DNA from: an uncultured Thermoproteaceae archaeon
GTDB lineage: Archaea; Thermoproteota; Thermoprotei; Thermoproteales; Thermocladiaceae
Assembly: GCA_964575955.1 (NCBI GenBank)
Contig: CAZNTG010000006.1
Coordinates: 458,107-490,106, forward strand
Reading direction: 5' to 3'
DNA: 32,000 nt
The position numbers and the translations under genes are program-made. Shown piece by piece: positions 8,278 to 32,000 of the stretch; position 1 is the first letter of the stretch, and each line of letters opens with the position of its first letter. The notes beneath the pieces were generated by a model. It did not search any database and was not told where the DNA came from. It worked only from the letters and a program-made list of their open reading frames with translations.

Positions 8278-9078
8278 CTATATTTCAAAAACCCTCTCTA
8301 ACTCACTACACAGTCTCGACTTATCTATACACATCTTAAGTATCTCACGTATTCCTCTGAATTTATCCATTAATGATCCACCTAGTAGAAATAGAGAACC
8401 TTTAACTGCTAATGTATCAGTAACACCTTTACTTTTAAAATTATTAATTAGTTGCAATATCTTTGATAGATCCTCTGATGTACTATATTTTTCACACTCT
8501 TTAATTAATCTTAGTATTAATTCCTCAGCTGTGTTGTAATAAGAGAGTATATTTATACGAAGTGTAAAGTTACTAAATATGATGTCAATATATTGTTTTC
8601 GAATTGGGATTATATCGAACTTGCACTCTTTTACTGTTAGCACTAGCCTCAGAGATTTCCTACTACATAAATCTTCAATTTTATGTTGTAGATTATCTAG
8701 ACAATCATAATCGATTAAAACCGAAATTTGCCGTACAGACTCTACAGAGAATTTCTGAAGTTCTTTAATAACTTCAGATCTTCCTAAAGGAATATATTGA
8801 ATAACTATTGGCTTTGTGCCGTGATTGATCGTTGAATAAATTATGTGTTTGAGGAAATCTATAACACCTCCACACCCTCCACATGGTATAATCCACACAT
8901 CGTAATCATGCTTGTTGGAAATCTTCCCTCTACATATATAATCAACAATTCTTCCACCTATGTAATGCCCACCTAACACTTCAACGTTTTTTAATATACC
9001 ACATAAGTGTTCCATCATTAATCTCAACAATAAGCAGTCTCGCAATCCTTCAGTGATGATAAACATTACCTTAACCAT
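8278..9078 (-). CDS. TOPRIM-like putative nuclease (DUF4435/RloB/DUF3226-like), partner of the upstream ATPase
   Basis: 266 aa. N-terminal beta-strand plus Glu motif FIITEGLRD (Glu codon 9049-9051), Gly-rich IIPCGGCGGV, acidic LIDYDCLD (DxD, 8704-8712), helical C-terminus. Starts 15 nt after the ATPase stop on the same strand. The family assignment is by motif pattern only. Confidence 0.4.
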   Translation of the reverse strand: MVKVMFIITEGLRDCLLLRLMMEHLCGILKNVEVLGGHYIGGRIVDYICRGKISNKHDYDVWIIPCGGCGGVIDFLKHIIYSTINHGTKPIVIQYIPLGRSEVIKELQKFSVESVRQISVLIDYDCLDNLQHKIEDLCSRKSLRLVLTVKECKFDIIPIRKQYIDIIFSNFTLRINILSYYNTAEELILRLIKECEKYSTSEDLSKILQLINNFKSKGVTDTLAVKGSLFLLGGSLMDKFRGIREILKMCIDKSRLCSELERVFEI

Positions 9079-9093: not shown

Positions 9094-10383
9094 CTACACT
9101 ATGAGTCTTAGGTCATAACCAAGCTTTTCAATATTTAACTCGACTTCTTCACCTGTGTAGTTAGCGATTGAGGTCATTCCATTGCTAAGATCACGCTTTA
9201 GTGCTATGAGGTTCAAGTTATCTATACCCTCCTCCTTCAGCTTAAGTACATTGATGAATTCTCTAATTAATTCTAAGCTATGTGTAGAAAGTATGACTTG
9301 TACGCCTTTTTTCGCAAATTCTATAGTCATTTCACAGAATTTTCTAAGTAAACCTGGGTGTAACGTATTCTCAGGTTCTTCAATGAGGATTATAGAGGGT
9401 CTAAGTTTCTCTGCTACGGTATATGCCAGTAGTGCTGTGATAAAACTCTTGATGCCATATCCACATAGCTCTATATCGAGTGGTCTATCTACACCTCTAT
9501 ACTTAACAAGACATCTTACACGTCTTATAGAGTCTCCTGGTACAAAATCTAAATCTTCAATATAATCTATATATGTGTTTATATACTCTTTTAATTTACT
9601 ACTTAAGCCTAGTTCTATAATTTTACGTAGAAGATTTTTAAATAACACTCTCCCTCTTTCAATTACATCTATGAGAATGCAGTTCAATAACTGTATTTCT
9701 TCTTTTCTTCTCATTCCTACAGCGAAGGTAGCAATTCCATACGTGTGTGAAATTGAATAAGACATTCCGTAGAGATCTCTATTCACTAACGTACATAAAT
9801 AAAGTCTATCATATCTATATCTTCCACCAACAATTTCAAGTCTTCTCTCTACCTCTTCCTCTACCTCTCTTGGAGTAGGTAGAACCTCCTCAGGACGTAT
9901 AAGTTGCAATACTTCAAAGCCCAATGTGCTAATTAGATTAAAGATCTTGCTTACTCCGGATAACTTTCTTTTAAATATAGCTGCCTCTTTCTTCAAATGA
10001 TCAAGATATTTTCTAACATCTCTCTCCTCTATACCTAGCTCTTTACACTTTTTCAATAAAGCTAATCTCGATTTCGATAACAATGTACTTACAGTGTAAG
10101 TATGCTCATTAAGTTTAATCTCTAAATCTATCTCTGATAAGTTTGAATCTCTAAATAGCAAATTTGTGATAGAGCTATACTTACCGGCTAGAATACACAG
10201 TGTACATTGATCAGCTAGATCACGTAATCCTCGGAGACTAGAAGTTGATAGATATATAGCTTCAAGAATAGAACTCTTACCTGCATCATTTCTTCCAACA
10301 ATTATAGATATTTTAGAGAAGGTTACTTCTGCAACCTCTCTTATACCTTTAAAATTTTTTATAGTAAGTTTTCTAACATACAT
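9094..10383 (-). CDS. ABC-type (SMC/RecF/OLD-like, AAA_15/AAA_21) ATPase
   Basis: N-terminus MYVRKLTIKNFKGI...IIVGRNDAGKSS (Walker A, 10270-10296). Long charged/helical insertion, signature-like CGYGIKSF, Walker B IILIEEPE (9370-9393), then LHP and STHS H-loop. Confidence 0.8.
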   Translation of the reverse strand: MYVRKLTIKNFKGIREVAEVTFSKISIIVGRNDAGKSSILEAIYLSTSSLRGLRDLADQCTLCILAGKYSSITNLLFRDSNLSEIDLEIKLNEHTYTVSTLLSKSRLALLKKCKELGIEERDVRKYLDHLKKEAAIFKRKLSGVSKIFNLISTLGFEVLQLIRPEEVLPTPREVEEEVERRLEIVGGRYRYDRLYLCTLVNRDLYGMSYSISHTYGIATFAVGMRRKEEIQLLNCILIDVIERGRVLFKNLLRKIIELGLSSKLKEYINTYIDYIEDLDFVPGDSIRRVRCLVKYRGVDRPLDIELCGYGIKSFITALLAYTVAEKLRPSIILIEEPENTLHPGLLRKFCEMTIEFAKKGVQVILSTHSLELIREFINVLKLKEEGIDNLNLIALKRDLSNGMTSIANYTGEEVELNIEKLGYDLRLIV

Positions 10384-12013: not shown

Positions 12014-12053
12014 AAATCACACTTATTAAATCTAGAATAGTATACTTAGTCTA

Positions 12054-13301: not shown

Positions 13302-14251
13302 AGATACTACCTGCATTTGAATGTGAAAATAGGATAGTTGATATATGTGTTGAAGAGTTGAATAATGATAAGCTTATAGTACTACCAACAGAGACAGTAT
13401 ATGGAATTACTATAAAAATAAACTCAAAAAACATAGAATCCCTATACAGGATAAAGGGTAGACACGAAAGATTTACAATACATATATCACATATAGACGA
13501 TCTTAAGAATTTTGGAATAATAATTAAAGATAAGTATGTAGACATTATCGAAAATATAACACCAAATCCAATAACTTTAATAGTAGAAGATATTAACAAC
13601 AACAAGATTGGTATTAGAGTTCCTGACATAGAGTTAACCAGAGATATACTAAGCAGAGTAGGACCATGCTATATGCCTAGTGCAAATCTAAAAGATAATC
13701 CAAGTCCAACAAATATATATCACGTAATTGAAGATCTTTCAGAATATGTAGATCTGATAGTTGACTACGGTGAAGCTAGGTATGGTATTGATTCAACAGT
13801 TATAGATTTAACAAAAACTCCACATAAGGTATTGAGAATTGGAGCATTTACACCAGACAAATTGAGAGAGTATTTCAATAATATTGAAATTGATGAAAGA
13901 ATTTTAAAAATGAAACCTCTAGATAAGAAATATTTGAAGAATATTGAAGTATACGGATTTAAGAATATTGATAAAGTCTTTAGAATTTTAGATAAGTATG
14001 AGAGATGTATAATAGTATGTACATTAGAGACATATTACAATAATGTTGAGAAGTTTAGAGGTAATGTAGATTTCTACATCTTAGGTTCAATAGAGAATCC
14101 ATTAACACTTTATAGAAATGTATATCCATCTTTCAGATACATTATGAAGAAAAGTCCTGATAAAGTATTTCTAGAATTACTACCTGTTGAGGATGTTTTC
14201 CTACCTGTAATTGAGAAGTTTTTAAATGCTGTTAATTATATTCTTGAGTAG
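13295..14251 (+). CDS. sua5: L-threonylcarbamoyladenylate synthase (Sua5/YwlC; tRNA t6A pathway)
   Basis: YrdC-domain motifs LPTETVYGI, RIKGR, IGIRVPD, MPSANL, IDSTVIDL, plus a Sua5-type C-terminal domain. Overlaps the Nre stop by 7 nt. Confidence 0.82.
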   Translation: MVKILPAFECENRIVDICVEELNNDKLIVLPTETVYGITIKINSKNIESLYRIKGRHERFTIHISHIDDLKNFGIIIKDKYVDIIENITPNPITLIVEDINNNKIGIRVPDIELTRDILSRVGPCYMPSANLKDNPSPTNIYHVIEDLSEYVDLIVDYGEARYGIDSTVIDLTKTPHKVLRIGAFTPDKLREYFNNIEIDERILKMKPLDKKYLKNIEVYGFKNIDKVFRILDKYERCIIVCTLETYYNNVEKFRGNVDFYILGSIENPLTLYRNVYPSFRYIMKKSPDKVFLELLPVEDVFLPVIEKFLNAVNYILE

Positions 14252-14968
14252 TTACGTTCTTGGTGGTCCTTGTAATATTCTATTTAATTGTGCTAGAAAA
14301 TCATTTACAACTATCTCAAGTATTTGTTTACCCTTCTCCTTATCTAAATCTCTAGTTAATCTTCCAATTATACCAATATCTGAGATTTCCTTAGTTCTAT
14401 ATAATTTTAATGATCCTTCTCTAACAATATCAACTATTCTTTCAAATTTTACAAGTTCTTCATTTATTGTCATTATCATGTATGTTTCTACAAGTCCTGC
14501 ATGTTCTACATATACATCTCCAAGTAAATCTCTCAATTTTCTCTTAACTCTCTCATTTAGTACATAGTAGTGATATGTTTTGATACTATTTCTATAGTTT
14601 AACGTTCTTGCTACAAGATCTAGAATTTCACAATTACCTCCATGTCCATTAACTAGTACTACTCCTCTAGGTGAACATGTCTCTATTATTGACTCTACAA
14701 TATCTTCAATATATCTCATAAATGTTCTTGGAAGTACGTATATAGTTCCTGGAAAGTCTTTATGCTCCATAGAGCAGGTGTAGTATATTGGTGGTAGTAC
14801 TAGTACTGTATCTCCAAGTACTCTCTCAGCTATTGAACATAGATATTCTGCAATTATAGTATCACAAGTATATGGTAGATGAGGTCCATGTTGTTCAACA
14901 CTTCCAATAGGTATCAATACTAGTCTATTTGGAGTGAAGTCTAGAAGTGTCATATTTTCAAGTCTCAC
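14252..14968 (-). CDS. Creatininase-family amidohydrolase (possibly ArfB-like)
   Basis: LIPIGSVEQHGPHLPYTCDTIIAE and VNGHGGN are hallmark creatininase-family motifs. Confidence 0.82.
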   Translation of the reverse strand: MRLENMTLLDFTPNRLVLIPIGSVEQHGPHLPYTCDTIIAEYLCSIAERVLGDTVLVLPPIYYTCSMEHKDFPGTIYVLPRTFMRYIEDIVESIIETCSPRGVVLVNGHGGNCEILDLVARTLNYRNSIKTYHYYVLNERVKRKLRDLLGDVYVEHAGLVETYMIMTINEELVKFERIVDIVREGSLKLYRTKEISDIGIIGRLTRDLDKEKGKQILEIVVNDFLAQLNRILQGPPRT

Positions 14969-15093
14969 TATGATGCACCTACTATGAGGATTTTTAAGAG
15001 ATATTTAGAGGAGATTTAAATATGTCACTTGAATACTTAATCTAGAGTACTTTTCAAGTAGCATACTTTTAAATCATCGTAGCATCATAGAAC

Positions 15094-15525
15094 ATGATTC
15101 GAATAGCAATAGCAACAGACGATGGAAACATAGTATCCAACAGGATGTTTACAGTAGCTAAGATGTTTAAGATATATGACATGGATGAGGAGAAGGGAAC
15201 ATTAACATTTGTTGAAGATAGAAAGAATGCATTAGCAACATCTCAAGAAGTTTCAAATATGCCTGAAGAAGAGTATTGTAAACTTCTTCATGAGAAAGTT
15301 CTAAACGATATTAATGTAATAATTGGAACAGTATGCACAAGATTAACATACTACTACTTCCTATCTAACAATGTTCAAGTTCTCTTTGTTGAGAGAGATA
15401 CACCAATATCAATGGTTGAGGAATATCTTAGAAGAGTTGCAGAAGAGATAAGTAAGGAATTGAAAGCACAGAGTGGAGGTTATAGTGAGGAAGAGTTTGA
15501 GAGTGAGGAAGAGGAAGGATATTAA
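15094..15525 (+). CDS. NifB/NifX-like (dinitrogenase FeMo-cofactor-binding fold) small protein with acidic tail
   Basis: [15 protein letters not shown]...[11 protein letters not shown]...VEDRKN and ...DINVIIGT...VQVLFVE follow the layout of the NifX/NifB C-terminal domain family. The usual HFG motif is absent, and the C-terminal [12 protein letters not shown] tail is acidic. Confidence 0.45.
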
Positions 15526-16523
15526 TCATAACCAAACTCTCTTCTAAGTTCTATAGAAGCTTTAACAATATTTCTCAATTTTTCTAAAGCAATTTCTCTA
15601 GGAAGTCTCTTCAAACCACAGTCAGGATCTAGATAAATCTTTTCAGGACCTACAATATCGAGTTTCAATAATCTATATACAGCATCTTTAATCTCTTCAA
15701 CAGTCTCTACACGTAGTGTATGTACATCAACAACACCAAATCCAAGCTCCTTATTATATCCATACTCTTTCAAATATGGTAATAGTCTAAAGTTACTATT
15801 CTTAAATTCAAAATCGAATTGATCTACAGGATAGTCTAGAAGGTATGGTATTATCTTTTCAATTTTTCCAAAACATATATGGACTATCTTCTTACAGTCT
15901 AATCCATGTAGCATCTCTTTAAGAACATCTTTCAAAATCTCTACTTCCTCCTTCACAGGTCTTGTAGATAGTGCTGGTTCATCAACTTGAACAAATTTTG
16001 CACCTCTCTTAACAGCTTCCTCAATCTCTACTCTGAGAGCTTTAGCAATATCAAACATTAATTCTACTCTATCTCTATAGTATAGATTAAAACTCCAATC
16101 AACAATTGTGTATGGTCCTGTAAGTATGAATTTTACAGGTCTTCCATCACTGACACTTTTTGCAAATTCCCAATCTTCAATAATCATTTTACAACAATAC
16201 TCAACCTTATCTACAACTATAGGCTTTCTGAAATAGACATTGTCAAATATTCTAACCCAATCACCTACCTTATACCCTTTCATTCTCTCTACAAAGAATA
16301 CAACCATATCTTCTCTTGTCTGTTCACCATCACTAATTATGTCGATACCTGCAGTGATGTAGTCTTGAACTACCTTCCTAATAGCTTCTCTACAAATATT
16401 TCTAAACTCCTCCTCACCAATAAGACCTCTCTTTCTCTTCTCTATAGCTTCTTGAGCTTCTGGAAACTTTGGATAACTACCAACTACAGTTGTTATGAAT
16501 GCTTTTGGTAATCTATAAGTCAT
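15522..16523 (-). CDS. metE: Cobalamin-independent methionine synthase, catalytic (MetE C-terminal-like) subunit
   Basis: [35 protein letters not shown] and DPDCGLK (Zn ligands) are MetE catalytic-domain motifs. Confidence 0.85.
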
Positions 16524-17494
16524 GACTTAGATAATTCCTCTAAAATCCTTAAACCATATCGTCCTAATAGTCTAGTCTTCTCAATAGCATATTCTAATGG
16601 TATTAATTCAAAACTTGAAGATGTTGTTAATGCACCAATCTTTCTATCAGAAACTATCTCAAGAACTTTATCTACAATCTTCTTAACATATTCATAATCT
16701 TCACATTTAATATCTCTACCATCAATAATACCTAAACCAAGTCTTGAACCTTCAGGCTTAACATCCCTCAAAACTTGAAATGTTCTATCTGTATATTCTA
16801 CAAAGCTTATACATACAAGATCTACAGAAGTGTCAAATATTCTCTTTAACACACTACTCTTAGGAACATTGAAATATATTGATAGTATAACTCTATCATA
16901 AACCTTCTTCAACTCTCTAACACATCCATCCAATACGTCTAGAAACTTCTCATCAAAATCAGGATCTGCAACATATGGTTCATCAATCTGTAAAAATTCA
17001 GGCTTTATACCACCAATCTCAACATCAAGAATGTATAATCTAGATATTGAGTAAGCTAGCTCTACCTTATCTAGATCGGTTTTAGACATATTAACAAATG
17101 TTATAGGTCCTGGAACACTTATCTTAACTGGTTTATAATGTACAAACTTCTTAAGTAATCTACATCTTGTAGATATTACACATCTCTGTATATCTGGCTC
17201 TTCTACAAATACGGGAATTCTATAGAAGAAGTTATTGTCAAAATATCTCAATAGACCATCATAGTATACTCCTCTCCAAGATTCTACGAAGGGTCTAAAT
17301 ATGTCATGAAAATCTATCTGTGGATCTTGAATTATGGTCATATTTGAACCATCTTGAACACCACAGAGATATGCTAGATCTTCAATTAGAGATGTGTAAT
17401 ATTCTATATATGTTAGTTTACCTTCATCAAAATCTCTTATAGTTTTTCTAAATTTAGAACTTCTAGAATATCCTCCAAGTATGAATATTTCCAT
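16520..17494 (-). CDS. MetE N-terminal-domain-like protein (second half of split methionine synthase)
   Basis: 324-aa TIM-barrel-like paralogue with LQIDEPY but no Zn-ligand motifs. It has an ATGA overlap with the catalytic subunit gene. Confidence 0.65.
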
Positions 17495-17530: not shown

Positions 17531-19039
17531 CTAGTACTTCCACTTAATTACTGTGTATAGTGTCTCTTGTGCAGGACCTTCTTCAACTATCTTATAGAAT
17601 TCTGCTCTACAGTATAGACATCCTGGATCATCTGCTAGTGGATCTCCAAAGTATGAGAATGCTCTTGCTCTACAACCACCACAGATATCTCTATATTTAC
17701 ATCTTGAACATACATTTCCCGTGAATGTTCTTCTATCTCTAAACTTATTCATTAATTCATCATATTTCCAAATTTCGTAAAAGCTCTTTTCACGTATATT
17801 ACCTCTAGGTATTGGCATGAATACGCATGGTGTTACTGTTCCATCTGGCTCAACTGCACAATATACACGACCTGCACCACAACCTCCAATAAATTCTACA
17901 GCTGCTTTATATATTCCAAGTTTTAGAGCAGGTACGAAGTGTGTTGGTGCTGCAAGTTCTCCCTGAGTTTCTTGTAGTATTACTCTACCATATTGTGGTG
18001 CTGTTGTAACTATTTCAATTTTCCTTCTCCTAGTCTCTCTTGCTAATAATTTTAGAAATTCTTCCCTCTCTTCAGGTGTTAAATCAATCTTATAATTATC
18101 TCTACCTCTACCAACAGGTACGAAGTTGAAAAATACTATACGTCTAACTCCAAGATCTTCAGCAAGATCTATCATATTTTCAATATCATCAATATTGAAC
18201 TTTGTTACTGTTGTTGCAATAGCTGTGAAAAATCCCTCTTTAACACAATTTTCTATTCCTTTAACAGTCTTCTCCCATGCACCTGGAACACCTCTAAACT
18301 TATCATGTATCTCAGGCTTTGAATGATCAAGACTAATCTCTACATATCTCATACCTGCCTTCTTCATCTTCTTAACAAAGTCTGAATCTGCTAATGCTAT
18401 TCCATTTGTAGCAACTGCAGCATACATTCCACGTCTAGATATCTCTGCAACAATATCTAGGAAGTGTGGATGTATTGTTGGTTCACCACCACTGAGAGCT
18501 ACTCCACATACAAACATCTTATCAAGCTCGTCTATAAGCTTCAACTTCTCTTCAAGTGTGAGTTCTCTAACTTCAGCACCTGCACGTTGATAACAGTGTA
18601 TACATCTTAAATTACACATATTTGTAAAATTCCAAACTATGAAGAATGGTGCTTCAAATGGTAATGGTATTGTTAATCCATTTAGAGCAATAGTCCTAAA
18701 TACCAACAATACACCTCTCCTCGTTGCAGGATCTGCTAATAACTCTTTAGCAAATTTATCATCTGTCTTCAATAATGCTAATGCAAATCTCATCCATGCA
18801 GAAAATACTTCACTGACAAACCTGGCTATAGGAGGTAAACCACCTCTAACAACTCCAGCAAAATATGCTAAACATATATCTAAGAGAGGTCTTTTCTCAC
18901 CATTAATCTCAACCTCTTTTAACAATGCTTTAATTATTCTCCTGGTTGCTCTATTACCTAAGAAAAGTCTGAAGAAGGCAAGAACACCAGATAAACCATG
19001 CTTACTATCTCTCTCAATCTTCAAATTACTCACAGTCAC
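17531..19039 (-). CDS. Radical SAM protein with C-terminal SPASM domain and ~130-aa N-terminal extension (GTG start)
   Basis: CNLRCIHC (Cx3Cx2C) at residues 142-149, GGEPT. The SPASM Cys pattern is GGCGAGRVYCAVEPDGTVTPC ... CSRCKYRDICGGCRARA ... DPGC. Confidence 0.85.
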   Translation of the reverse strand: MTVSNLKIERDSKHGLSGVLAFFRLFLGNRATRRIIKALLKEVEINGEKRPLLDICLAYFAGVVRGGLPPIARFVSEVFSAWMRFALALLKTDDKFAKELLADPATRRGVLLVFRTIALNGLTIPLPFEAPFFIVWNFTNMCNLRCIHCYQRAGAEVRELTLEEKLKLIDELDKMFVCGVALSGGEPTIHPHFLDIVAEISRRGMYAAVATNGIALADSDFVKKMKKAGMRYVEISLDHSKPEIHDKFRGVPGAWEKTVKGIENCVKEGFFTAIATTVTKFNIDDIENMIDLAEDLGVRRIVFFNFVPVGRGRDNYKIDLTPEEREEFLKLLARETRRRKIEIVTTAPQYGRVILQETQGELAAPTHFVPALKLGIYKAAVEFIGGCGAGRVYCAVEPDGTVTPCVFMPIPRGNIREKSFYEIWKYDELMNKFRDRRTFTGNVCSRCKYRDICGGCRARAFSYFGDPLADDPGCLYCRAEFYKIVEEGPAQETLYTVIKWKY

Positions 19040-19119
19040 GTTAAATATCTATGTCATCTAATACATAAATTTGACATCATGCAAACATCATGACCTAGAG
19101 ATGTAGATTCATGGAAATC

Positions 19120-19842
19120 CTACAAACCTGACATTAAGATATCGCAGAGTGGCTTAATCTTCCTCTTTAACTTATCTAGAAGTTGACTACTATGAGCTTC
19201 AGGTAAGACATCTTTTAAAACATCTTTAAAATATGAAAGTTTTGAAACTATATTATTCATATTTAGGTAGAGATCTGCAATTTTATTAAAATTACCACTC
19301 TTAATATCGTATATCAGTAGTAGAGTATTAATTAGAGAATCTAGAAGATCTATATGACCAGCCTCTACAAGCTTCTTAAGTAGGTATATCACATTTATAC
19401 GAATAAGATTACCCTCCTCTAACCTAGCTTCTAGATATGTATATAGTTTATACGCATTAGTTATCTGTACACATTGCACATTCTTAGAATCATACTCATC
19501 AAGCATGTATGTTTCAGACTTATCTAAGTATAGTGTACCTTTCTTCAAAACTATGTATAAGTCAACTCTAAGAAGATCATCATCATCATAAATTCTAATT
19601 CTCTTCTCATTATTTACTAAAAATTTCTTAATAATTTTCCAAATCTTTCTAATCTTACTATACCTATCCTGTCTATCTATCATAACTACACTTGAGGAAA
19701 AGCATGGCACATCTATACAATGTAGACCCCTCTCTGCACAGTATAGTGCTTGTCTACGTACTATACATGCAATATACCTAACTACATCTGCTTCAGTAAT
19801 CCTATCTCTAAGTATGAAGTTACTACAATCACCATTAATCAT
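19120..19842 (-). CDS. Hypothetical protein (240 aa), no recognisable domain
   Basis: Long ORF in a co-directional gene string with an ATG start. The mostly helical C-terminal half has no motif I can assign. Confidence 0.5.
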   Translation of the reverse strand: MINGDCSNFILRDRITEADVVRYIACIVRRQALYCAERGLHCIDVPCFSSSVVMIDRQDRYSKIRKIWKIIKKFLVNNEKRIRIYDDDDLLRVDLYIVLKKGTLYLDKSETYMLDEYDSKNVQCVQITNAYKLYTYLEARLEEGNLIRINVIYLLKKLVEAGHIDLLDSLINTLLLIYDIKSGNFNKIADLYLNMNNIVSKLSYFKDVLKDVLPEAHSSQLLDKLKRKIKPLCDILMSGL

Positions 19843-19910
19843 CTTTTACACTATCTTCAGGAAGGAAGTTTAAAAGTTGTAATTTTGATATATTTATCAC
19901 AGTCTGAATG

Positions 19911-20477
19911 TTAGGATAAGTCTTCTAATGTTCTAGCCATAACATATGCATCTTCACCATCATGATAGTACTTCTTTATTATATTTACAACTGTAAATCC
20001 AAGTTTTCTATATAGATTTATAGCTGGTTCGTTAGATACTCTAACTTCTAAATATACTTCAGATGCACCATACTTATGCTTTAATACTCTTAATGCTCTC
20101 AGAAGCATATTATATGCAATTCCAATCCTTCTAGCATGTGGTAAAACTCCAATCGATATTACATGACCTTTCCTCACAGGTTTACCAACTTTAAAGTATG
20201 ACCAGCCATACTCAACTCTACACATTACATATCCAACAACCTCACCATCAATTTCAGCAACAATAAACGCTTTTGGATGTGTTAAATAGTGATCAACAAA
20301 GAAGAATGGTGGATAATTTTCTGGTAGTACTCTCCTATTAATAGATACTACCTTATCTAGATCTTCCATTTTAAACTCTCTCAATTTAAATATCCTCCCA
20401 TCTTTACCACGAATAAGTTCTTCTCCTTCTAGTGCAGTTGTGGTATCTTTAATACCTTCCTGAAGCACAACTATCAT
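19911..20477 (-). CDS. GNAT N-acetyltransferase (RimI/Ard1-type protein N-terminal acetyltransferase)
   Basis: Acetyl-CoA binding motif HARRIGIAYNML and EVRVSNEPAINLYRKLGF are typical of the RimI/Ard1 family. Confidence 0.8.
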   Translation of the reverse strand: MIVVLQEGIKDTTTALEGEELIRGKDGRIFKLREFKMEDLDKVVSINRRVLPENYPPFFFVDHYLTHPKAFIVAEIDGEVVGYVMCRVEYGWSYFKVGKPVRKGHVISIGVLPHARRIGIAYNMLLRALRVLKHKYGASEVYLEVRVSNEPAINLYRKLGFTVVNIIKKYYHDGEDAYVMARTLEDLS

Positions 20478-20558
20478 ATTTCTATCTAAAACATCTTTTA
20501 AATATGTATCTACACACTCTCAACATAGTTAAACACGAATTATCACAATACTACTAGA

Positions 20559-21023
20559 CTACTCTTCAATTACTCTACATAGCATATATGTGACTAGTAA
20601 GTAGACTATTCCTAACATTAGTAGTAGTATCAGTTGTCCTTTTCCTCTAAATATCAAGTCTCTAAGTACTAGACCTATCAATCCTACATGAGGTATTACT
20701 AGCGTTACAACACCTCTAATCTCTCTATTATTTATAAGCCATGGATCAGGAATTGGATTTGCATCACCTTTAGTTCTAATAAACACTACATGTCCTCTAA
20801 CTATCTTCTCATATACTCTATGTACAATCTCTATACTCTCACCATGCATTTTCAATATGTATACAATGACCTGTCCTACATGTATCTCAGTTATTGGTGT
20901 CTTCTGTAAAACTACTATATCTCCAATATCTAATGCTGGAACCATACTATAACTTCCAACTACAGCCCACGGTACTCCAAGTCCTGAATATTGTGATACT
21001 ATGTAGTACGCTAGGAGTAGCAC
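20559..21023 (-). CDS. Signal peptidase I (archaeal/eukaryal Sec11-type); 5' end uncertain
   Basis: Catalytic Ser motif GSYSMVPALDIGDIVVL, HRV, TKGDANPIPDPW. The first canonical start (GTG 21023) leaves only a short hydrophobic N-terminus. The 15 in-frame codons upstream encode IEKRTVVELVILIVIV, which looks like the missing signal anchor (see findings). Confidence 0.8.
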   Translation of the reverse strand: MLLLAYYIVSQYSGLGVPWAVVGSYSMVPALDIGDIVVLQKTPITEIHVGQVIVYILKMHGESIEIVHRVYEKIVRGHVVFIRTKGDANPIPDPWLINNREIRGVVTLVIPHVGLIGLVLRDLIFRGKGQLILLLMLGIVYLLVTYMLCRVIEE

Positions 21024-21080
21024 TATTACTATTAGTATTACTAGTTCTACTACGGTTCTCTTCTCTATCTATAAATCACC

Positions 21081-21096
21081 TCTAGACATGTCTAGA
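21081..21096. promoter_or_regulatory. Perfect 16-bp palindrome TCTAGACATGTCTAGA in the divergent signal peptidase/thermosome intergenic region
   Basis: The sequence is exactly self-complementary. It sits 38 nt upstream of the thermosome TATA box. Confidence 0.3.
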
Positions 21097-21133
21097 TGAG
21101 AAGTTTTTCACATTTACTCAATATAGAGAAAGG

Positions 21134-21141
21134 TTTTTATA
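21134..21141 (+). promoter_or_regulatory. TATA box for the thermosome gene
   Basis: TTTTTATA ends 30 nt upstream of ATG 21172. This argues against the GTG at 21145 given by the ORF track. Confidence 0.5.
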
Positions 21142-21171
21142 GAAGTGGAGTCTCATGTAGTATACGAGAAC

Positions 21172-22812
21172 ATGAGCGAGAGAAGAACTGGCGCACCAGT
21201 TCTAATACTTAAGGAAGGTACTCAGAGAACAACTGGCACAGATGCTCGAAGAAGTAACATAATGGCTGCTAAGGTAATTGCAGAGATATTACAGACCAGT
21301 CTTGGACCTAGAGGTATGGATAAGCTACTCATTGACGCTTTTGGAGATGTGACAATTACAGGTGATGGTGCAACAATACTCAAAGAGATGGAGGTTCAGC
21401 ATCCTGCAGCAAAGCTTCTTGTAGAGGTTGCAAAAGCGATGGATGCTGAGGTTGGTGATGGTACAACAACAGCAGTAGTTCTTGCTGGTAAGCTATTAGA
21501 AGAGGCAGAGAAGTTGTTAGACGAGGGTATTCATCCAACAATAATAATCTCAGGATATAAGAAAGCCGCAGACTACGCTATGCAGATTGCTGAGGAGATA
21601 GCGAAGCCTGTAAATGTTGAGAACAAGGATGAGCTTATTAGAGTTGCAATGAACGCATTAAGTAGTAAAGTTGTTGCTGAAGCTAGAGACTACTTAGCAA
21701 GAATTGTAGTTGATGCATGTAGTAAGGCTGTTGAGATTAGAGATGGAAAGTATTATCTAGATCTCGACTGGATTAAGATTGAGAAGAAGAGAGGTAAGTC
21801 ACTATTTGAGACACAGCTAATTGATGGTATTGTACTTGATAAGGAAGTTGTACACCCAGGAATGCCTAGAAGAGTTGAAAATGCTAAGATAGCAGTTCTA
21901 GACTGCCCACTAGAGATTGAAAAGCCTGAGTGGAGTACTAAGATCACAGTATCATCACCAGACCAGATAAAGGCTTTCCTAGATGAAGAGGCAAAGATAT
22001 TGAAGAGCTATGTTGACAAATTGAGAGAGCTTGGTGTAAATGTTGTAATATGTCAGAAAGGTATTGATGAGATTGCACAGCACTTCCTAGCTAAGGCTGG
22101 CATTCTAGCTGTTAGAAGAGTAAAGAGAAGTGATATTGAGAAAGTATCAAGAGCAACAGGTGCTAAGATAATTACAAGTCTAAGAGACATCAGACCAGAA
22201 GATCTAGGTACAGCAAAACTTGTAGAAGAGAGAAAGGTTGGTGAAGAGAAGATGCTATTTATTGAAGGATGTCCAAATCCAAGAGCAGTAACAATACTCA
22301 TAAGAGGTGCTGCAGATAGAATACTTGACGAAGCTGAGAGAAGTGTACAAGATGCACTACACGTAGTACGTGACATATATAGAGAACCAAAGATAGTACC
22401 TGGAGGTGGAGCATTTGAGATAGAAATTGCTAGAAGATTAAGAGAGTGGGGTAGAAAGTTGCCAGGTAAGGAGCAGCTTGCAGTACTCAGATTCGCAGAT
22501 GCTCTAGAACATGTACCAACAATACTAGCAATGACAGCTGGTCTAGATCCAGTAGATGCAATTGCAGAATTAAGAAAGAGACATGAAGCAGGTGAGGTTG
22601 ATGCAGGTGTTGATGTACTTGGATGTAAGATTGATAATATGTATAAGCTAAATGTTGTAGATCCACTACTAGTTAAGAAGAATGTTATCAAGGCTGCAAC
22701 AGAAGCAGCAATAATGATATTGAGAATAGATGATATAATTGCAGCAGCACCATCAAAAGGTGAAGGAAAGACTAGAAAGACAGGTGCTCCAGAAGAGGAG
22801 GAGAGTAAGTAA
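21172..22812 (+). CDS. ths: Thermosome subunit (group II chaperonin, CCT/TCP-1 family)
   Basis: [63 protein letters not shown] and a GxxxE-rich C-terminal tail are diagnostic. Confidence 0.95.
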
Positions 22813-22885
22813 TTTTCAACATTCTAAAAGTCGTAAATTTTGAGAGAGTAAGTTTTCTAAAACCCTCAATAAATCTACCTATACT

Positions 22886-23263
22886 ATGTCTTCATCTTCA
22901 ACTACTACAAAATCTAGTAAAGTTCGAGTTTTTAATCTTGAAGAAAACTTTCCAAAAACTATAGAGGAATTGATATCTGCTCTAGAGAAGAGATCTTTAC
23001 CATTTCCACCAAGATTAACTAAGTATGAGATTGCTAGAATTGTTGCCGCTAGAGCTAAACAACTAGCTATGGGTGCTAAACCTATGATAGATATCTCAAA
23101 CTTGGGAACTTATGATCCAGTAATTATTGCTCTAGAAGAACTTAAGCAAGGTAAACTACCTCTAATAATAAGTAGGAGATTACCAACAGGTCGTAGAATT
23201 GAAATTAAGGTTCAAGATCTACAAAAGTTAGAGAGAGAATATGATTTCGGCATACCATACTGA
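22886..23263 (+). CDS. rpoK: DNA-directed RNA polymerase subunit Rpo6/RpoK with N-terminal extension
   Basis: Core LTKYEIARIVAARAKQLAMGAKPMI is the RpoK/Rpb6 signature. It is preceded by a roughly 40-aa Ser/Thr-rich and charged extension. Confidence 0.85.
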   Translation: MSSSSTTTKSSKVRVFNLEENFPKTIEELISALEKRSLPFPPRLTKYEIARIVAARAKQLAMGAKPMIDISNLGTYDPVIIALEELKQGKLPLIISRRLPTGRRIEIKVQDLQKLEREYDFGIPY

Positions 23264-23265
23264 GA

Positions 23266-23652
23266 TTATATAGATGAAGACTCTACCTCTCTCTCAGTTG
23301 GTTCACTTCTCTTAATCTCAATCTTACCATCCTGTATAGATACTTCGACATAATCACCAACATCAAGCTTACCTAAAATCTCTACCTCATCCTCAGTTAG
23401 CCAAATTGTCAATCTTGGTATTGGTATCTTACCACTAGTAGCTCCAAGACCTGGAAGTGGCATAGATTTTAATAGTTGTTGAACAAGTGGCATTACCTCT
23501 CTAGCAAGTCTAGCAATTTCATCACTACCAGCAATCACTGGTCCTGGTATTTCTCTTTCTTCAACAATGTCTATCTTTATCATTCTACTTCCAGAAAAAT
23601 CGTAGACTATAGACTTACTCAATATGTATCCTCTAAATGATACTTTTGTCAT
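23266..23652 (-). CDS. Hypothetical protein (128 aa)
   Basis: ATG-initiated ORF with its own upstream AT-rich region. The C-terminus (GDYVEVSIQDGKIEIKR) loosely resembles an AbrB/SpoVT-like hairpin, but this is not firm. Confidence 0.45.
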   Translation of the reverse strand: MTKVSFRGYILSKSIVYDFSGSRMIKIDIVEEREIPGPVIAGSDEIARLAREVMPLVQQLLKSMPLPGLGATSGKIPIPRLTIWLTEDEVEILGKLDVGDYVEVSIQDGKIEIKRSEPTEREVESSSI

Positions 23653-23801
23653 ATATTATATCCACGTGTAGTTTCATTTAACTTATTTAAAAACTTGATG
23701 TAGTATGTAGATATTTTTGGTAGATTATTAGTGAAGATTTAGAAAAGGCATTGGAAAAATTCGTCTTCTTATACAACCTTTTAACAATTTTTAGTTTTTA
23801 C

Positions 23802-24086
23802 TTATGACTTCTTTTCAAGTACTATCTCGATAGCTGCTACGTATCTCTCCTTACCTCCCTGTCCAGCTATTCTATCACTCATTAACTTCACTTCCTTTAT
23901 CTCTACTAGTCCTGGCATGAATCTGTCTCTAACCATTACTGCAGTTGCTACTGCTCTTGCAACAGCTGTTCCTCTTGCCTTTAGTATTACTCTCTTACTA
24001 CCAGCATTGAACTGCATTACTGTTGCTATAACGTAGTTTGTTGTTGGCTTACGACCTACTAGTATTACTGCTTCTGGTGCTGACAT
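23802..24086 (-). CDS. albA: Alba DNA/RNA-binding chromatin protein
   Basis: ILVGRKPTTNYVIATVMQFNAG...VILKARGTAVARAVATAVMVRDRF...IEIVLEKK matches Alba. The second ATG (24086) is preferred because it sits 30 nt from the shared TATA element. Confidence 0.9.
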   Translation of the reverse strand: MSAPEAVILVGRKPTTNYVIATVMQFNAGSKRVILKARGTAVARAVATAVMVRDRFMPGLVEIKEVKLMSDRIAGQGGKERYVAAIEIVLEKKS

Positions 24087-24115
24087 GTATGATCCGAGCA
24101 CGTTATGCACAGTGT

Positions 24116-24124
24116 ATTTTTAAA
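24116..24124. promoter_or_regulatory. Shared AT-rich TATA element between divergent albA and the crenactin operon
   Basis: ATTTTTAAA lies 24 nt upstream of ATG 24148 (+) and 30 nt upstream of ATG 24086 (-). The whole divergent spacer is only 61 nt. Confidence 0.45.
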
Positions 24125-24147
24125 GTATTACCGTTTAGTTCTACTAG

Positions 24148-25814
<1,667 letters not shown>

Positions 25815-25850
25815 AAACATATATCAACAACCTAGTAGAAGATAATCACG

Positions 25851-26579
25851 ATGTCATCATTACTAATTTTAGATAAGGTAAGAACATTATTGAAAAGATG
25901 GGCAAAAGAAAATAACTTAATACTGGAAGAGCTAGGTGATAGTTCAGCAATACTTAGAGAAGGTGATAATACAATATTTATAAAATTTCTAATATATGAA
26001 GATATACCTGACATAGATGATTTAAATAGACAAATAACATTATTAGCATCAAAAAGATCAGAATACAATAAGATGTATATATTGACAGGTAGAGATACTG
26101 TAAGTATACTAGATGGAAAACTGTTGAAGAAGGTTGGAATTGGTGTATTAGTTGTAGACTTCGATAATGAGGAGATTAGAGAAGTCTTACAGAGTCCAGC
26201 AGTTAGTGTGAAGAAGACATATGATATAGATATATCAAAAATCGAGAATTATATAAAGAATATAGTTGAAAAATATGTTAAGAATGAAATTGAGAAAGTG
26301 TATGATCTTGTGAGAAGTATTGAAGAGAGAGTTCTAAATATAGAGAAGATGTTGAGTAATATGAAATCTTATAAACAAGATATTGAAGATATATGGAATG
26401 TTATAGATAGACTGAAGTTAGAGATTGAAAGATTGAAAAATATGTGTACCGATACCAGTGCTAGACCTGTTAAAGAGGAAGCTGTTGAAGTATCTAGAAG
26501 AGAAGAGAAGATTGAAATGCCTGAATATCTTAAAGATAATCCATGGATTCAAATAATAGCAAACAAATCTGTAAGATAG
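25851..26579 (+). CDS. Arcadin-2-like protein (globular N-domain, coiled coil, C-terminal peptide)
   Basis: 242 aa, immediately downstream of crenactin. Has a central heptad-rich region and a C-terminal EMPEYLKDNPWIQIIANK tail. The assignment is by synteny and architecture. Confidence 0.5.
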   Translation: MSSLLILDKVRTLLKRWAKENNLILEELGDSSAILREGDNTIFIKFLIYEDIPDIDDLNRQITLLASKRSEYNKMYILTGRDTVSILDGKLLKKVGIGVLVVDFDNEEIREVLQSPAVSVKKTYDIDISKIENYIKNIVEKYVKNEIEKVYDLVRSIEERVLNIEKMLSNMKSYKQDIEDIWNVIDRLKLEIERLKNMCTDTSARPVKEEAVEVSRREEKIEMPEYLKDNPWIQIIANKSVR

Positions 26580-26580
26580 T

Positions 26581-26763
26581 ATGAGTACAGAGATTGATAG
26601 GATAATTATAGAACTCTTAAAAAGTGAGATTTCAGATGAAGAAACATATAGATTAGCTGAAGAACTATATAGAGCATATAAGGAGGGTGGTCAGAGAAAG
26701 GTTAGAGAATACATACTTAAGTTATTAAGAGATCTCGGTATTGAAGATATAGAAAATGAGTAA
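26581..26763 (+). CDS. Arcadin-3-like small helical protein
   Basis: 60-aa ORF starting 2 nt after the previous stop and overlapping the next gene by 8 nt. Assigned by synteny only. Confidence 0.4.
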   Translation: MSTEIDRIIIELLKSEISDEETYRLAEELYRAYKEGGQRKVREYILKLLRDLGIEDIENE

Positions 26764-29239
26764 GTTTAGAATTAAGGAATTAGTAATTGAAAATTTTAAA
26801 GGATATAAAGGTAGACATGTAGTACAGTTTAATCCAGGAATCATAGCAATTTACGGTCCTGTTGGTTCAGGTAAGTCAAGTATTGCACAAGCAATAGAAT
26901 ATGCACTATATGGTCAACAACTTGAAATTAAAGAGAGGATAGCAAAACTTGTAGATTTAATAAATGAGGAGGCTAGTGAAGCTAGAGTTCAATTAACTTT
27001 AGAAGATTATGAAGGTAATGTAGTGAAGATAATTAGACATTTAAGAAGATATGGAGATTCTGCTAGAGAAACACTTGCAGAATTGTGGTTTAATAATAAG
27101 AAGATAGCTTCAACAGCTAGAGAAGTTAATGAGAAGATTATAGAGATATTAAAATTAGATGAAGATGACTTCTCAAGATTTGTATTAGTTACTCATAGAG
27201 TTTTAGAAGGACTCGTATATGGAACTCCTGCAAAGAGAAGCTTAGTAATAGATAGATTATTCGGAATTGAAATGCTTGAACAGATATACAAAGCTATACC
27301 AATAAGAAAGATTGAAGAAATCTTAGAAAGAGAGAAACAGAAATTATCATCATATAAAGAGCTACCTGAAATATTATCGAAATATGGTTCAATACAAAAT
27401 GCAAGAGAGATATTAGAAAAGATGAAGAAAGAAATTGAGGAATATAGAGAAGTTGAATCTGAGCTTCAAAGAAGACTTGAAAAATTAATTGAACAGAGAA
27501 AACAAATTTTAGAGAAATTCTCAACAGTAGAGTCAGACTACGTTAAGTATCTTAAAATTAAAGCCGAGAGAGAAATGCTTGAAGAAGAATTAAAAAATTA
27601 TCAGGAAGTATCTGAAAAAACTATTAGAGTTGAACTTGATTTAATAAAATCATTCTTAATATCTAAACTCGAAGAGTTACTATTAAGTAGAGAAGTTGAA
27701 GAACTTTCACAAATCGATACTACATCACAAAATTTAGAGGATGTTAGTATGAAAATATTTAATATTGTTAGAAGATTAGAAGATTATTTAACGAAGATTA
27801 ATGAAGAAATTGAAAATTTGACAAATCTATGTGAAGAACTTAGAGCTGACTCTGAAAGACTTAGTAATGAAATTAGAATTTTAGAGAGAAGAATTAGAGA
27901 GATAGAAGATCAGTATAGAGAGTATAAGTCTCTAATATCGAAATATGGAACTCCTGAACATATTAAACAAGAGTTAGATAGATTGAGAGAGAAGATACAG
28001 TCTATAGAAGAGTTTGATAGACATGTTGAAGCTATAATTAGTGAAATTGTTAGAAAAGGATTGAAAAATTGTCCTATATGTGGTAGAGAGATTGATGATA
28101 ATGTACTTGAGAATATCAAATCTAGACTTGAAGAACTTAGAAAGAGGAGTAGAGTTGAAGAGTTAGAGTCTCTTCAGAAGAAGGTTGAAGAATTAGAACA
28201 TGCATTATCTAAGATTAAATCATTAAAATCTATTGTTGAAGAATATGAAGAACTGTATAGTAAAGTTAAGACTTTGAGAGAGATGTATAGTAATGTTATA
28301 GCTAAATTAGAGAATGCTGAAAAGAATAGGAGAATTCTTGAGAGACGTAGTCAGGTAATTAAAGCATTGATTGATGAGATTAGAGAGAGAATAGACAAGG
28401 TTGATAAAAATATTGCACTACTTAGGAAGTTTAAGAAATTGAAGAGTTTGATTAGAGAGGAGAGAGAACTTGAAGAGAAGTTGAAAAGTTCAGGACTTGA
28501 TTTAAAACAGTTAACATCTCTAGAGTTAGAAATTCAAGATATTAGTAAGAGACTTGATGAAGTTAGAAATAGGTTAAATAGTTTGAGTATTGAAGTTTCT
28601 AGATTAGAGAGAATACTATCTTCAATTCCTGTTGAATCTATCGAAAAACTTCGTGATAGAGTGTATAGTCTAGAGAAGTTGTATAATCAGTTAACTAATG
28701 TCAGATCTGCAATTAGGAAAGTACAATCTAGATTAAGAGAGAAGATGGTTGAGAAAGTTAGAGATTTAGTAGATAACTATTTCAAGCTCATGTACCCATA
28801 CTCAGACATGTCTGGTGCTGGAATTGAGTTGAGTATTAAGGAGAGACTTGGCACTCTAGTTAGTGAATATACTCTATACGGTTTGAGAGGTGGTAGACGT
28901 GTTCCAATATCTAGAATGAGTGATGGACAGAGACTTACTCTCTCACTATCATTTATGCTTTCTGTATATGTTGTTGCTAATCATAATGTAGATTTCATGA
29001 TTATGGATGAACCAATGCCATATGTTGATGTTGCTATAAGATCATCATTTTCAACATTAATATCAAAGTTAGTTAAAGAGTGTCTCGTTAATCAATTAAT
29101 AATAACTTCTCAAAGTAGAGAGTTTATAGATCAAATTATTAGAGAAGCTTTGAAGAATAATATCAATACTACACTTCTAAGTATTGAGAGAGAAGACTCT
29201 CAGAGAAGGATTAAAGTTGAGAAGATTGAACATAGCTAA
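26756..29239 (+). CDS. Arcadin-4-like SMC/Rad50-family coiled-coil ATPase
   Basis: N-terminal IENFKGYKG...GPVGSGKSS (Walker A), about 600 aa of heptad-rich coiled coil, central CPICG (28070-28084), C-terminal signature SDGQRLTLSLSF and Walker B FMIMDEP. It is the last gene of the crenactin cluster. Confidence 0.75.
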   Translation: MSKFRIKELVIENFKGYKGRHVVQFNPGIIAIYGPVGSGKSSIAQAIEYALYGQQLEIKERIAKLVDLINEEASEARVQLTLEDYEGNVVKIIRHLRRYGDSARETLAELWFNNKKIASTAREVNEKIIEILKLDEDDFSRFVLVTHRVLEGLVYGTPAKRSLVIDRLFGIEMLEQIYKAIPIRKIEEILEREKQKLSSYKELPEILSKYGSIQNAREILEKMKKEIEEYREVESELQRRLEKLIEQRKQILEKFSTVESDYVKYLKIKAEREMLEEELKNYQEVSEKTIRVELDLIKSFLISKLEELLLSREVEELSQIDTTSQNLEDVSMKIFNIVRRLEDYLTKINEEIENLTNLCEELRADSERLSNEIRILERRIREIEDQYREYKSLISKYGTPEHIKQELDRLREKIQSIEEFDRHVEAIISEIVRKGLKNCPICGREIDDNVLENIKSRLEELRKRSRVEELESLQKKVEELEHALSKIKSLKSIVEEYEELYSKVKTLREMYSNVIAKLENAEKNRRILERRSQVIKALIDEIRERIDKVDKNIALLRKFKKLKSLIREERELEEKLKSSGLDLKQLTSLELEIQDISKRLDEVRNRLNSLSIEVSRLERILSSIPVESIEKLRDRVYSLEKLYNQLTNVRSAIRKVQSRLREKMVEKVRDLVDNYFKLMYPYSDMSGAGIELSIKERLGTLVSEYTLYGLRGGRRVPISRMSDGQRLTLSLSFMLSVYVVANHNVDFMIMDEPMPYVDVAIRSSFSTLISKLVKECLVNQLIITSQSREFIDQIIREALKNNINTTLLSIEREDSQRRIKVEKIEHS

Positions 29240-29286
29240 TCTTGTAAGTTTCCCGAACCCTTATTAACTCTCTAATATTTAGCTTC

Positions 29287-30519
29287 ATGTATATGGGCAA
29301 TTTCATATATCCAGACACCATACTGACAACGTTAGGACATGTTGATCATGGTAAAACAACTCTAGTACAGGCTTTAAGTGGTGTTTGGGTTGCTAGACAT
29401 AGTGAAGAGATTAAGAGAGCTATGACTATAAAGTTGGGATATATAACAATTGGAATTTACGAATGTCAAGATGGTGAGTATAGGTATGTAAGTGATGGAC
29501 TTTTAGAAAATGGTAAATGTCCTGATGGTTCAGAACCTAGACTTGTTAGAAGAATATCTATTCTAGATGTTCCAGGACATGAAGTACTACTATCAACAAT
29601 GATTGCCGGTATTGGATTTGTAGATGGTGCATTAATGATTATTGATGCATCAATGCCATGTCCACAACCACAAACTGAAGAACATTTCCTAGCTGCAACA
29701 ATAATGGGTCTTAGAAGGATGATAGTTATTCAAAATAAGATTGACCTAGTACCGAAAGAGAAAGCTATTGAAAATTATCAACAAATTAAGAAATTTCTAT
29801 CAGGTACTTGGGCTGAAAATTCTCCAATAATACCAGCATCAGCATTACATAAAGTGAATATTGATGCAATAGCAACATTAATACATGAATATTTTCCAAA
29901 ACATGAAGAACAGAGTTCAGGACCACCAATGATGCACGTCTTAAGAAGTTTCAATGTCAACAAACCTGGTACACCACCAGAAAAGTTGGTAGGTGGTGTT
30001 CTTGGTGGTGTTGTTGTTAGAGGACAATTGAAGGTTAATGATGAGATTTAGATAAGACCAGGACTTAAACTTGGTGCTAAACATGTACCATTAAGAACAT
30101 GGATAACATCAATATCCATAGGTACAGAATTTGTAGAATATGCAAAACCTGGAGCACTCGTTGGAATAGGTACAAAACTAGACCCAGCATTAACGAAGGC
30201 AGACTCACTTGTAGGTAGTGTTGTAGGATTACCAAATCAGTTACCACCAGTCTGGTCTGAAGTTGAGCTTGAGTATGAGTTAATCAGGAAGGAGAAGCAG
30301 TACCAGATCAGGAAAGGTGATGTATTGATGATTAATGCAGGTGCTGCAACAGTACTTGGAATGGTTAAAGATGTGAAGAAGGAGAGAATTATAATAACAT
30401 TGAGAAAAGCTATATGTGCAGAACAAGGTTCTAAAATGGTAATAACAAAACAGGTTGAGAATAGGTGGAGAATAGTTGGTTATGGAACTATAAGTGGTGG
30501 TCACGTAGTATATGAGTAG
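29287..30519 (+). CDS. eif2g: Translation initiation factor aIF2 gamma, interrupted by an in-frame TAG at 30049-30051
   Basis: G domain GHVDHGKTTLVQALSGVW..HSEEIKRAMTIKLGY, DVPGHE, QNKIDL, SAL. After VNDEI-TAG the same frame continues IRPGL...AKPGALVGIGTKLDPALTKADSLVGSVVG...ENRWRIVGYG, which are domains II and III, to the TAG-TAG at 30517-30522. Confidence 0.85.
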
Positions 30520-30910
30520 TAGAGTACCAGTAGTATTGTACGATACTAGTATACTAATATTGATGTTTAGAGAAAATGTTAAAGTTTTTCAAAATGTTAA
30601 AGATATAGTAGGTCTACATATTCCTACAATCACTGAATTAACATTAAAAGAACTTGAAAAGATGTTAAAATTTAGAGAAATAAAAACTAGAAATGCTGCA
30701 AGATTAGCATTAGAATTTGTAAAGAAGTACATGTCTATATGTAAGTGTAGTAGTGATATATGTGATGATTGTATATTTGAGATGTGTATTGAGAAGAATG
30801 TCGATTATGTAGTTACATGTGATCTAGAACTTAGAAAGAGAATTTTAGAAAATACTTCCTGTAAAGTACTCTACTATTTAGCTAGTAAGAATAGAATTGT
30901 TCTTGATTAA
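30512..30910 (+). CDS. PIN-domain protein (Fcf1/Utp24-like)
   Basis: The N-terminal VVLYDTSIL acidic motif and C-terminal VVTCDLELRKRI fit this PIN family. It has the conserved position between aIF2-gamma and rpo7, with an 8-nt overlap with aIF2-gamma. Confidence 0.7.
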   Translation: MSSRVPVVLYDTSILILMFRENVKVFQNVKDIVGLHIPTITELTLKELEKMLKFREIKTRNAARLALEFVKKYMSICKCSSDICDDCIFEMCIEKNVDYVVTCDLELRKRILENTSCKVLYYLASKNRIVLD

Positions 30911-30960
30911 AAACGTAAACTTCATAAACACTAGCAATAGTATGCGTATGGAGATTATCC

Positions 30961-31545
30961 TTGTGGAGAGTTGTGACATTGGAAGACTATGTTAGGATTC
31001 CACCATCAAGATTTGGAGAACCACTTGACAAGGTAGCATATGAACAGCTTAGAGATAAGTATGAGGGTAAGGTTGAGCGTGATATTGGAATATTTGTTAA
31101 GATACTATCACTTGAGGTAAGTAAGAAAGGAATAATAACTTTTGGTGATGGTGCAACATATCATAAAGTTAGAGTTAAGATACTAGTATTCTCACCACTA
31201 AATAATGAGATTGTTGAAGGTGATGTTGTTGAAACTACAGAATATGGAGCATTCATCAGAATAGGACCTGTAAGAGGACTACTACATAAAACACAGATGA
31301 TGAGTGATAACATAATATTCTACGATAAGACAAGTGGAACTTTCATAGGTGAGAAGAGTAAGAGAAGACTTGGTAAAGGTGATGTTGTTAGAGTAAGAAT
31401 AGTAAGTGTAAGCTATGTACTAACATCATCAGGACTTGGACTAAGAATAAGCTTAACAGCAAGACAACCTTTCTTAGGTAAGTATGAGTGGATTGAAGAG
31501 GACATACAGGCACTACGTAAAAAGCCTGTAAAGACTGGTAAGTAG
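30961..31545 (+). CDS. rpoE1: RNA polymerase subunit Rpo7 (RpoE'), TTG or GTG start
   Basis: N-terminal LEDYVRIPPSRFG and the S1 domain GDVVETTEYGAFIRIGPVRGLLH are typical of Rpo7. An alternative GTG start is at 30973. Confidence 0.85.
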   Translation: MWRVVTLEDYVRIPPSRFGEPLDKVAYEQLRDKYEGKVERDIGIFVKILSLEVSKKGIITFGDGATYHKVRVKILVFSPLNNEIVEGDVVETTEYGAFIRIGPVRGLLHKTQMMSDNIIFYDKTSGTFIGEKSKRRLGKGDVVRVRIVSVSYVLTSSGLGLRISLTARQPFLGKYEWIEEDIQALRKKPVKTGK

Positions 31546-31561
31546 AGTATAGGTGTACAGT

Positions 31562-31792
31562 ATGGCAACACCAAGAAGAAGAGGTAGAAAGAGAGCATTA
31601 CCAGGATATAAAGCATGTAGAAACTGCAAAGCTGTAGTTCCTGAAAATGAGCCAAAATGTCCATACTGTGGATCAACAGACTTCTCAGATGAGTGGTATG
31701 GATTAATAATAATTATCGATCCTGAAAAATCAGCATTAGCAAAAGCATTAGGATTATCAAGAAAGGGAATATACGCTATAGATGTTCCGTAA
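31562..31792 (+). CDS. spt4: Transcription elongation factor Spt4 (RpoE'')
   Basis: Zinc ribbon CRNCKAVV...CPYCGS followed by FSDEWYGLIIIIDPEKSALAKALG. The ATG at 31562 is preferred over the track's GTG at 31553. Confidence 0.85.
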   Translation: MATPRRRGRKRALPGYKACRNCKAVVPENEPKCPYCGSTDFSDEWYGLIIIIDPEKSALAKALGLSRKGIYAIDVP

Positions 31793-31826
31793 AGTTTTTT
31801 AAAATATTTAAAGATTGACATGATGC

Positions 31827-32000
31827 ATGTCAATACCTGAAAATCTTGTAAAAATACTACCAGAAGGCGTTGAACCTGGAAAAATAGTGTATAAAATTGT
31901 TGAAGATAGAAGAAATCCACTACTCTTCAGAAGAGAATTAATGGTAGAGATATGGCATATAGGTCTACCAACACCAAATAGACTTGAAGTAAGACAAAAA
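31827..32000 (+). CDS. rps24e: 30S ribosomal protein S24e (5' partial, runs off window)
   Basis: Hand translation from ATG 31827 gives MSIPENLVKILPEGVEPGKIVYKIVEDRRNPLLFRRELMVEIWHIGLPTPNRLEVRQK, which carries the S24e signature (NPLL.R.E....H.G..TP.R.E.R). It is absent from the ORF track because it is truncated. Confidence 0.8.
   Translation, partial: MSIPENLVKILPEGVEPGKIVYKIVEDRRNPLLFRRELMVEIWHIGLPTPNRLEVRQK

Follow-up and report, generated by a model that had tools for sequence, protein, structure and literature searches.

A premature TAG in the aIF2-gamma gene of an uncultured Thermoproteales relative is probably a consensus error or a captured minor variant

The aIF2-gamma gene in the window (the whole 32-kb stretch of DNA that was analysed, from an uncultured relative of the Thermoproteales, with a low GC content of about 33%) carries an in-frame TAG at 30049-30051 on the + strand, where its frame reads ...RGQLKVNDEI*IRPGLKLGAKHVP..., as the first-pass annotation had noticed. 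Two independent assemblies have GAG at this codon, and the T at 30049 is probably a consensus or base-call error, or else a minor variant captured by the assembly. The gene and its parts are located as follows:

29293..30519, + strand: aIF2-gamma gene of 408 codons followed by a stop; TAG at codon 253 (numbering from the ATG at 29293)
30049..30051, + strand: in-frame TAG; base 30049 is T in the window, whereas the ENA and Logan assemblies have G (GAG, Glu)
29293..30048, + strand: N-terminal fragment with the G domain and the first part of domain II; 252-aa product P0032
30052..30516, + strand: C-terminal part of 155 codons with the rest of domain II and domain III
30512..30910, + strand: downstream gene for a PIN_9/Fcf1-like protein of 132 aa, whose ATG overlaps the aIF2-gamma end

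Counted from the ATG at 29293, which is the start used by the orthologues, the N-terminal part has 252 codons (254 from an ATG at 29287), and its product matched the Pfam family GTP_EFTU (3.8e-28, residues 11-203). The C-terminal part matched eIF2_C (8.4e-21), and its 155 codons stay open in the same frame, so the earlier statements that intact domains flank the TAG and that the downstream frame is open both held. Domain II and domain III are coded in one frame, and the window's TAG cuts them from the G domain, leaving a product without domain III and without most of domain II. In the intact protein P0121, which is identical to the window protein except for the stop, GTP_EFTU_D2 and eIF2_C were both matched, and the GAG allele thus carries the G domain, GTP_EFTU_D2 and eIF2_C in one polypeptide. 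The motifs GHVDHGKT and NKID, as expected of an EF-Tu-type G domain, were invariant in the aIF2-gamma alignment. Downstream, genes for the PIN/Fcf1-like protein, RpoE'/Rpb7, Spt4 and S24e form a conserved archaeal context. On these sequence grounds, orthology and the conserved neighbourhood, the gene is assigned as aIF2-gamma. Similar to aIF2-gamma/eIF2-gamma in general, it encodes all three domains, is 57-91% identical to annotated Thermoproteales proteins and lies in the conserved neighbourhood, and the single stop codon in this record is the only difference. C60 and C78 are the only two cysteines conserved in the aligned Thermoproteales aIF2-gamma proteins at residues about 58-80 (window 29460-29530); the equivalent region of other archaeal aIF2-gamma proteins holds a four-Cys zinc knuckle.

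The gene naturally ends with a tandem TAG-TAG at 30517-30522, as had been described. This tandem sits within the ATG AGT AGT AGA start (30512) of the PIN_9/Fcf1-like gene, and since the second TAG is constrained by the Ser-Ser-Arg codons of that gene, it need not be a back-up stop. The first in-frame ATG, GTG or TTG after the internal TAG is a TTG at 30325, 92 codons on and within domain III, which agrees with the earlier remark that no start codon follows directly. Re-initiation after the TAG was rejected on this ground.

The conservation of codon 253 was evaluated in related genomes. In the protein collection, full-length aIF2-gamma proteins 408-426 aa long were matched; the closest non-identical ones were 91, 88, 86, 85, 83 and 80% identical and came from uncultured Thermoproteota and Thermoproteales, while the annotated aIF2-gamma proteins of Vulcanisaeta, Caldivirga, Thermocladium, Thermoproteus and Pyrobaculum were 57-66% identical. 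At the stop position, Glu is present in each of the 17 aligned full-length orthologues (57-91% identity), and it is the invariant Glu of the motif (N/G)DE(I/V)E(I/L)RPG, for example DEIEIRPG. The sense codon expected there by the first-pass annotation is thus a Glu codon, and TAG lies one change, G>T, from GAG. At the nucleotide level, the codon was GAG or GAA in 31 of the 31 related genome loci in which the motif could be located, so the question of whether close relatives share the TAG was answered in the negative.

Further, the same organism was recovered in other assemblies. The truncated product P0032 (252 aa; NCBI; 621-kb contig) shares its 90%-identity cluster with one other member, P0121 (408 aa; JGI/IMG, Logan and ENA), which matches the window's conceptual protein at all residues and has Glu at the stop. 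The exact P0032 was found on no other contig of the collection, which would fit a private allele, although the index seems to lack the window's own record as well. The 27-mer around the site, with N at the variable base, matched nothing in genome_contigs or metagenome_contigs, two collections that do not include this species and thus yielded no allele counts. Alignment of the window with the sister contigs gave the following:

ENA ERZ27262694:k141_294541 (356 kb, MEGAHIT), window 19293-32000, 12,708 bases: sole mismatch at 30049, G vs. T, no gaps
ENA ERZ27262694:k141_294541, second fetch, window 18504-31814, 13,311 bases: sole mismatch at 30049
Logan SRR8542060_23138 (22 kb), window 22102-31814, 9,713 bases: sole mismatch at 30049
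ENA ERZ27262694:k141_294541, upstream half, window 1-20383: sole mismatch at 16895, GAT/GAC, synonymous
second Logan contig, L003 (15.8 kb), window 1136-16894: sole mismatch at 16155, AGT/AGC, synonymous

The Logan contig SRR8542060_23138 differs from the ENA contig in both assembler and source. Over the full 32 kb, the window and the ENA contig differed at two bases, the G>T at 30049 and one synonymous A/G transition, and the only differences from the ENA and Logan contigs beyond 30049 were those at 16155 and 16895, both synonymous third-position A/G transitions. At about 99.99% identity, the window, ENA and Logan sequences can therefore be assigned to a single population, in which assemblies differ by roughly one SNP per 16-32 kb. 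The nonsense G>T at 30049 is private to the window's record among the assemblies compared. A sense codon in the reads at 30049-30051 had been named beforehand as the finding that would undo the internal stop; by proxy, this is what the GAG of two independent assemblies provides. Because the only other differences are two synonymous third-position transitions, the genuine variation in the population looks neutral or purified by selection, and against it the nonsense transversion stands out. The contig L003 ends at window position 16894, one base short of the 16895 SNP, suggesting that strain micro-diversity breaks the Logan assembly there.

These comparisons point to the T as a probable consensus or base-call error, or captured minor variant. 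Under this explanation, the working gene of the organism would read GAG (Glu) at codon 253, and the T would have arisen at consensus building, through a wrong base call, a fault of polishing or the capture of a rare variant by the assembler. Decoding would play no part, and the cell would make a normal 408-residue aIF2-gamma from the GAG-bearing gene. aIF2-gamma is a single-copy essential factor, and it is from this essentiality, together with the truncation in the middle of domain II, that we infer the T to be an artefact or a minor variant and not the allele that most cells of a living lineage carry. Stop-creating changes make up 4.9% of all possible single-base changes in the gene, and as many windows were screened, one random stop would be unremarkable. 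Interrupted genes that arise from consensus errors or minor variants in draft genomes and MAGs likewise show a single-base lesion in an otherwise perfect essential gene, which is absent from other assemblies of the organism and unaccompanied by a second lesion. In contrast to such cases, the error would here be deduced from comparison, and the rest of the 32 kb bears no sign of poor assembly. Indeed, several observations count against an error: the record cannot be called generally error-prone, with neither indels nor further suspect differences in its 32 kb; the G>T lies beside TT, unlike the classic homopolymer indel of long reads; and, given the real micro-diversity of the population, the T could be a genuine allele.

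The last of these observations bears on a second explanation, which we consider possible though clearly less probable, namely that the T is a real and very recent nonsense mutation in the sampled lineage, without a compensating mechanism. Such an allele would be deleterious and probably lethal, being carried by a minority of cells, by one chromosome copy or by a lineage near extinction. The gene contains no second lesion and its flanks are identical to those of the intact allele, and hence any mutation at 30049 must be extremely young, in agreement with this explanation. Real SNPs do occur in the population, at the rate given above, and a Logan contig terminates right beside one of them. However, aIF2-gamma is established as single-copy and essential, and since the product lacks domain III entirely and most of domain II, a haploid population cannot have this allele as its majority form. 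The remaining real SNPs are synonymous transitions, and the T was seen in no other assembly. Were the T shown to be fixed in living cells, the archaeal translation apparatus would offer a striking example of tolerated nonsense; nothing here points there. All other explanations taken together were considered very unlikely. Among the three options left open by the first-pass annotation, recent nonsense mutation and assembly error remain, whereas local readthrough or suppression is removed.

Programmed readthrough or suppression at this site, in which a near-cognate or suppressor tRNA aided by context or RNA structure would yield full-length aIF2-gamma, would fit two intact halves that have no restart codon near the TAG. 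The 100-150 nt after the TAG also folded better than shuffled sequences, with z = -3.0 for the 100 nt from the TAG onward, and z = -3.2 and -3.5 at 37 C for two windows after it (30084-30198, domain II coding). The latter two were among the best 2% of 216 windows spanning 21-32 kb, which is mildly unusual. However, the main hairpin begins about 35 nt past the stop, and the GAG allele has exactly the same bases downstream, which means that the fold cannot have evolved for the TAG. Neither was the fold conserved: RNAalifold on the window and nine relatives gave a consensus energy of -2.7 kcal/mol, the covariation term was unfavourable, and the hairpins of the window were not kept. The genera related to this organism are hyperthermophiles with a growth range of 75-85 C, and the 150-nt fold, which has -33.9 kcal/mol at 37 C, retained just -2.2 kcal/mol at 75 C and -0.4 kcal/mol at 85 C. 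The downstream structure was therefore rejected as a stimulator, being unconserved among the 10 sequences, nearly unfolded at 75-85 C and the same in the GAG allele, and the fold at 30084-30198 is probably a compositional accident. The answer to the earlier suggestion of a readthrough-stimulating RNA 3' of the TAG is accordingly negative.

The stop itself is conserved neither within the species, with GAG in two assemblies, nor in any relative, and no tRNA gene, including one for tRNA-CUA, was found by ARAGORN in the 32-kb window. Of the features that mark programmed readthrough, neither a conserved stop nor a conserved 3' context or structure was thus observed. Sec and Pyl are the only documented cases of archaeal readthrough (PMC8037382, PMC8211752). 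The interrupted Saccharolobus solfataricus fucA1, a -1 programmed frameshift, and the proposed case of aIF1/SUI1 (PMC8211752) resemble the present gene in that an archaeal gene is present as two ORFs with both halves intact, and aIF1/SUI1 is likewise an initiation factor. Those, however, are experimentally validated frameshifts at a strain-conserved slippery site, whereas the present stop lies in the same frame, lacks any slippery or stimulatory signal and does not occur in the sister assemblies. Readthrough, which on all these grounds was considered highly unlikely, appears close to refuted by the sister assemblies. Still more improbable is the combination of a real and dominant T with a UAG at which a near-cognate tRNA places Glu, Gln, Lys or Tyr often enough for the archaeon to survive; if true, it would be the first archaeal readthrough without Sec or Pyl, and in an essential translation factor.

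The whole 32 kb was scanned in six frames for same-frame segments split by one stop. The sole gene so interrupted was aIF2-gamma, and no other gene in the window had an internal TAG; the other same-frame ORF pairs were separate neighbouring genes or non-coding frames. Other split genes were also sought as a sign of a code change or of poor assembly and none was found, the pair 9094..10383 / 8278..9078 being two genes. TAG ended 12 of the 36 listed ORFs, comprising the aIF2-gamma finding, one antisense ORF that is probably spurious, and 10 credible genes, the ends of which agree with the gene calls in the sister contig. The earlier figure of about 12 TAG-ended genes was roughly right as a count of ORFs, while the credible others number 10. 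TAG thus serves as the normal stop in 10 other genes, and the earlier view that a global codon reassignment is not supported was upheld.

A reassigned TAG, or its decoding as pyrrolysine, scarcely deserves credence in this organism, as nothing speaks for it beyond the in-frame TAG itself. Against it stand the TAG at the ends of the 10 credible genes and of aIF2-gamma itself, the lack of an internal TAG in any other window gene, the ancestral residue, which is Glu and neither Lys nor Pyl, and the absence of tRNA-CUA from the 32-kb window. The UAG-to-pyrrolysine genes of methanogens (mtmB, mtbB and mttB) likewise have an in-frame UAG in a functional-looking archaeal gene, in genomes in which UAG is also a stop. 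Their UAG is conserved across orthologues, lies at the active site and needs pylTSBCD. In contrast, every relative has Glu at this codon, as do the other assemblies of the species, so a UAG conserved in orthologues and functionally required was not observed; the lineage is Thermoproteales, not a methanogen, and neither pyl genes nor tRNA-CUA were seen in the 32-kb window.

Extremely doubtful, too, is that the window copy is a pseudogene with an intact paralogue doing the work. The best non-identical match (91%) sits on a contig of another MAG, and the window copy lies in the conserved archaeal context of aIF2-gamma, PIN, RpoE', Spt4 and S24e. Its protein equals the intact P0121 with no other lesion or non-synonymous change, and instead of the multiple lesions or relaxed constraint of a decaying gene, zero other differences from the intact allele were found over at least 9.7 kb. 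The impression that the gene is not in decay was accordingly borne out.

The main value of the finding is as a quality flag, in that the deposited record has a premature stop in an essential gene. Automatic annotation will report aIF2-gamma as truncated or missing, completeness estimates may drop, and a gene loss may be suggested. For recoding candidates in metagenome-derived genomes, comparison with independent assemblies of the same population is a cheap and decisive check, to be made before any mechanism is considered.

Two other loci in the window were also examined. A crenactin cytoskeleton cluster at 23266-29239 lies directly upstream of aIF2-gamma, with the following annotated members:

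23266..23652, - strand: Arcadin_1
23802..24086, - strand: Alba
24504..25814: crenactin (PF00022)
26756..29239: SMC_N/Rad50-like protein of 827 aa

The cluster also contains a 117-aa ORF before crenactin and 242-aa and 60-aa ORFs after it, and it supports the affiliation with the Thermoproteales.

At 8278-10383 on the - strand, a gene for a 429-aa ABC-type ATPase matched the PADLOC models AriA (1.9e-29), AbiLi (3e-29) and OLD/GajA. After the TAG stop of this gene follows an ORF of 245-266 aa in the same frame, for which no Pfam or PADLOC match was found. The AriA/AbiL-like ATPase and the following ORF may form a putative two-gene defence pair with an uncharacterised effector, and their shared frame is probably due to chance.
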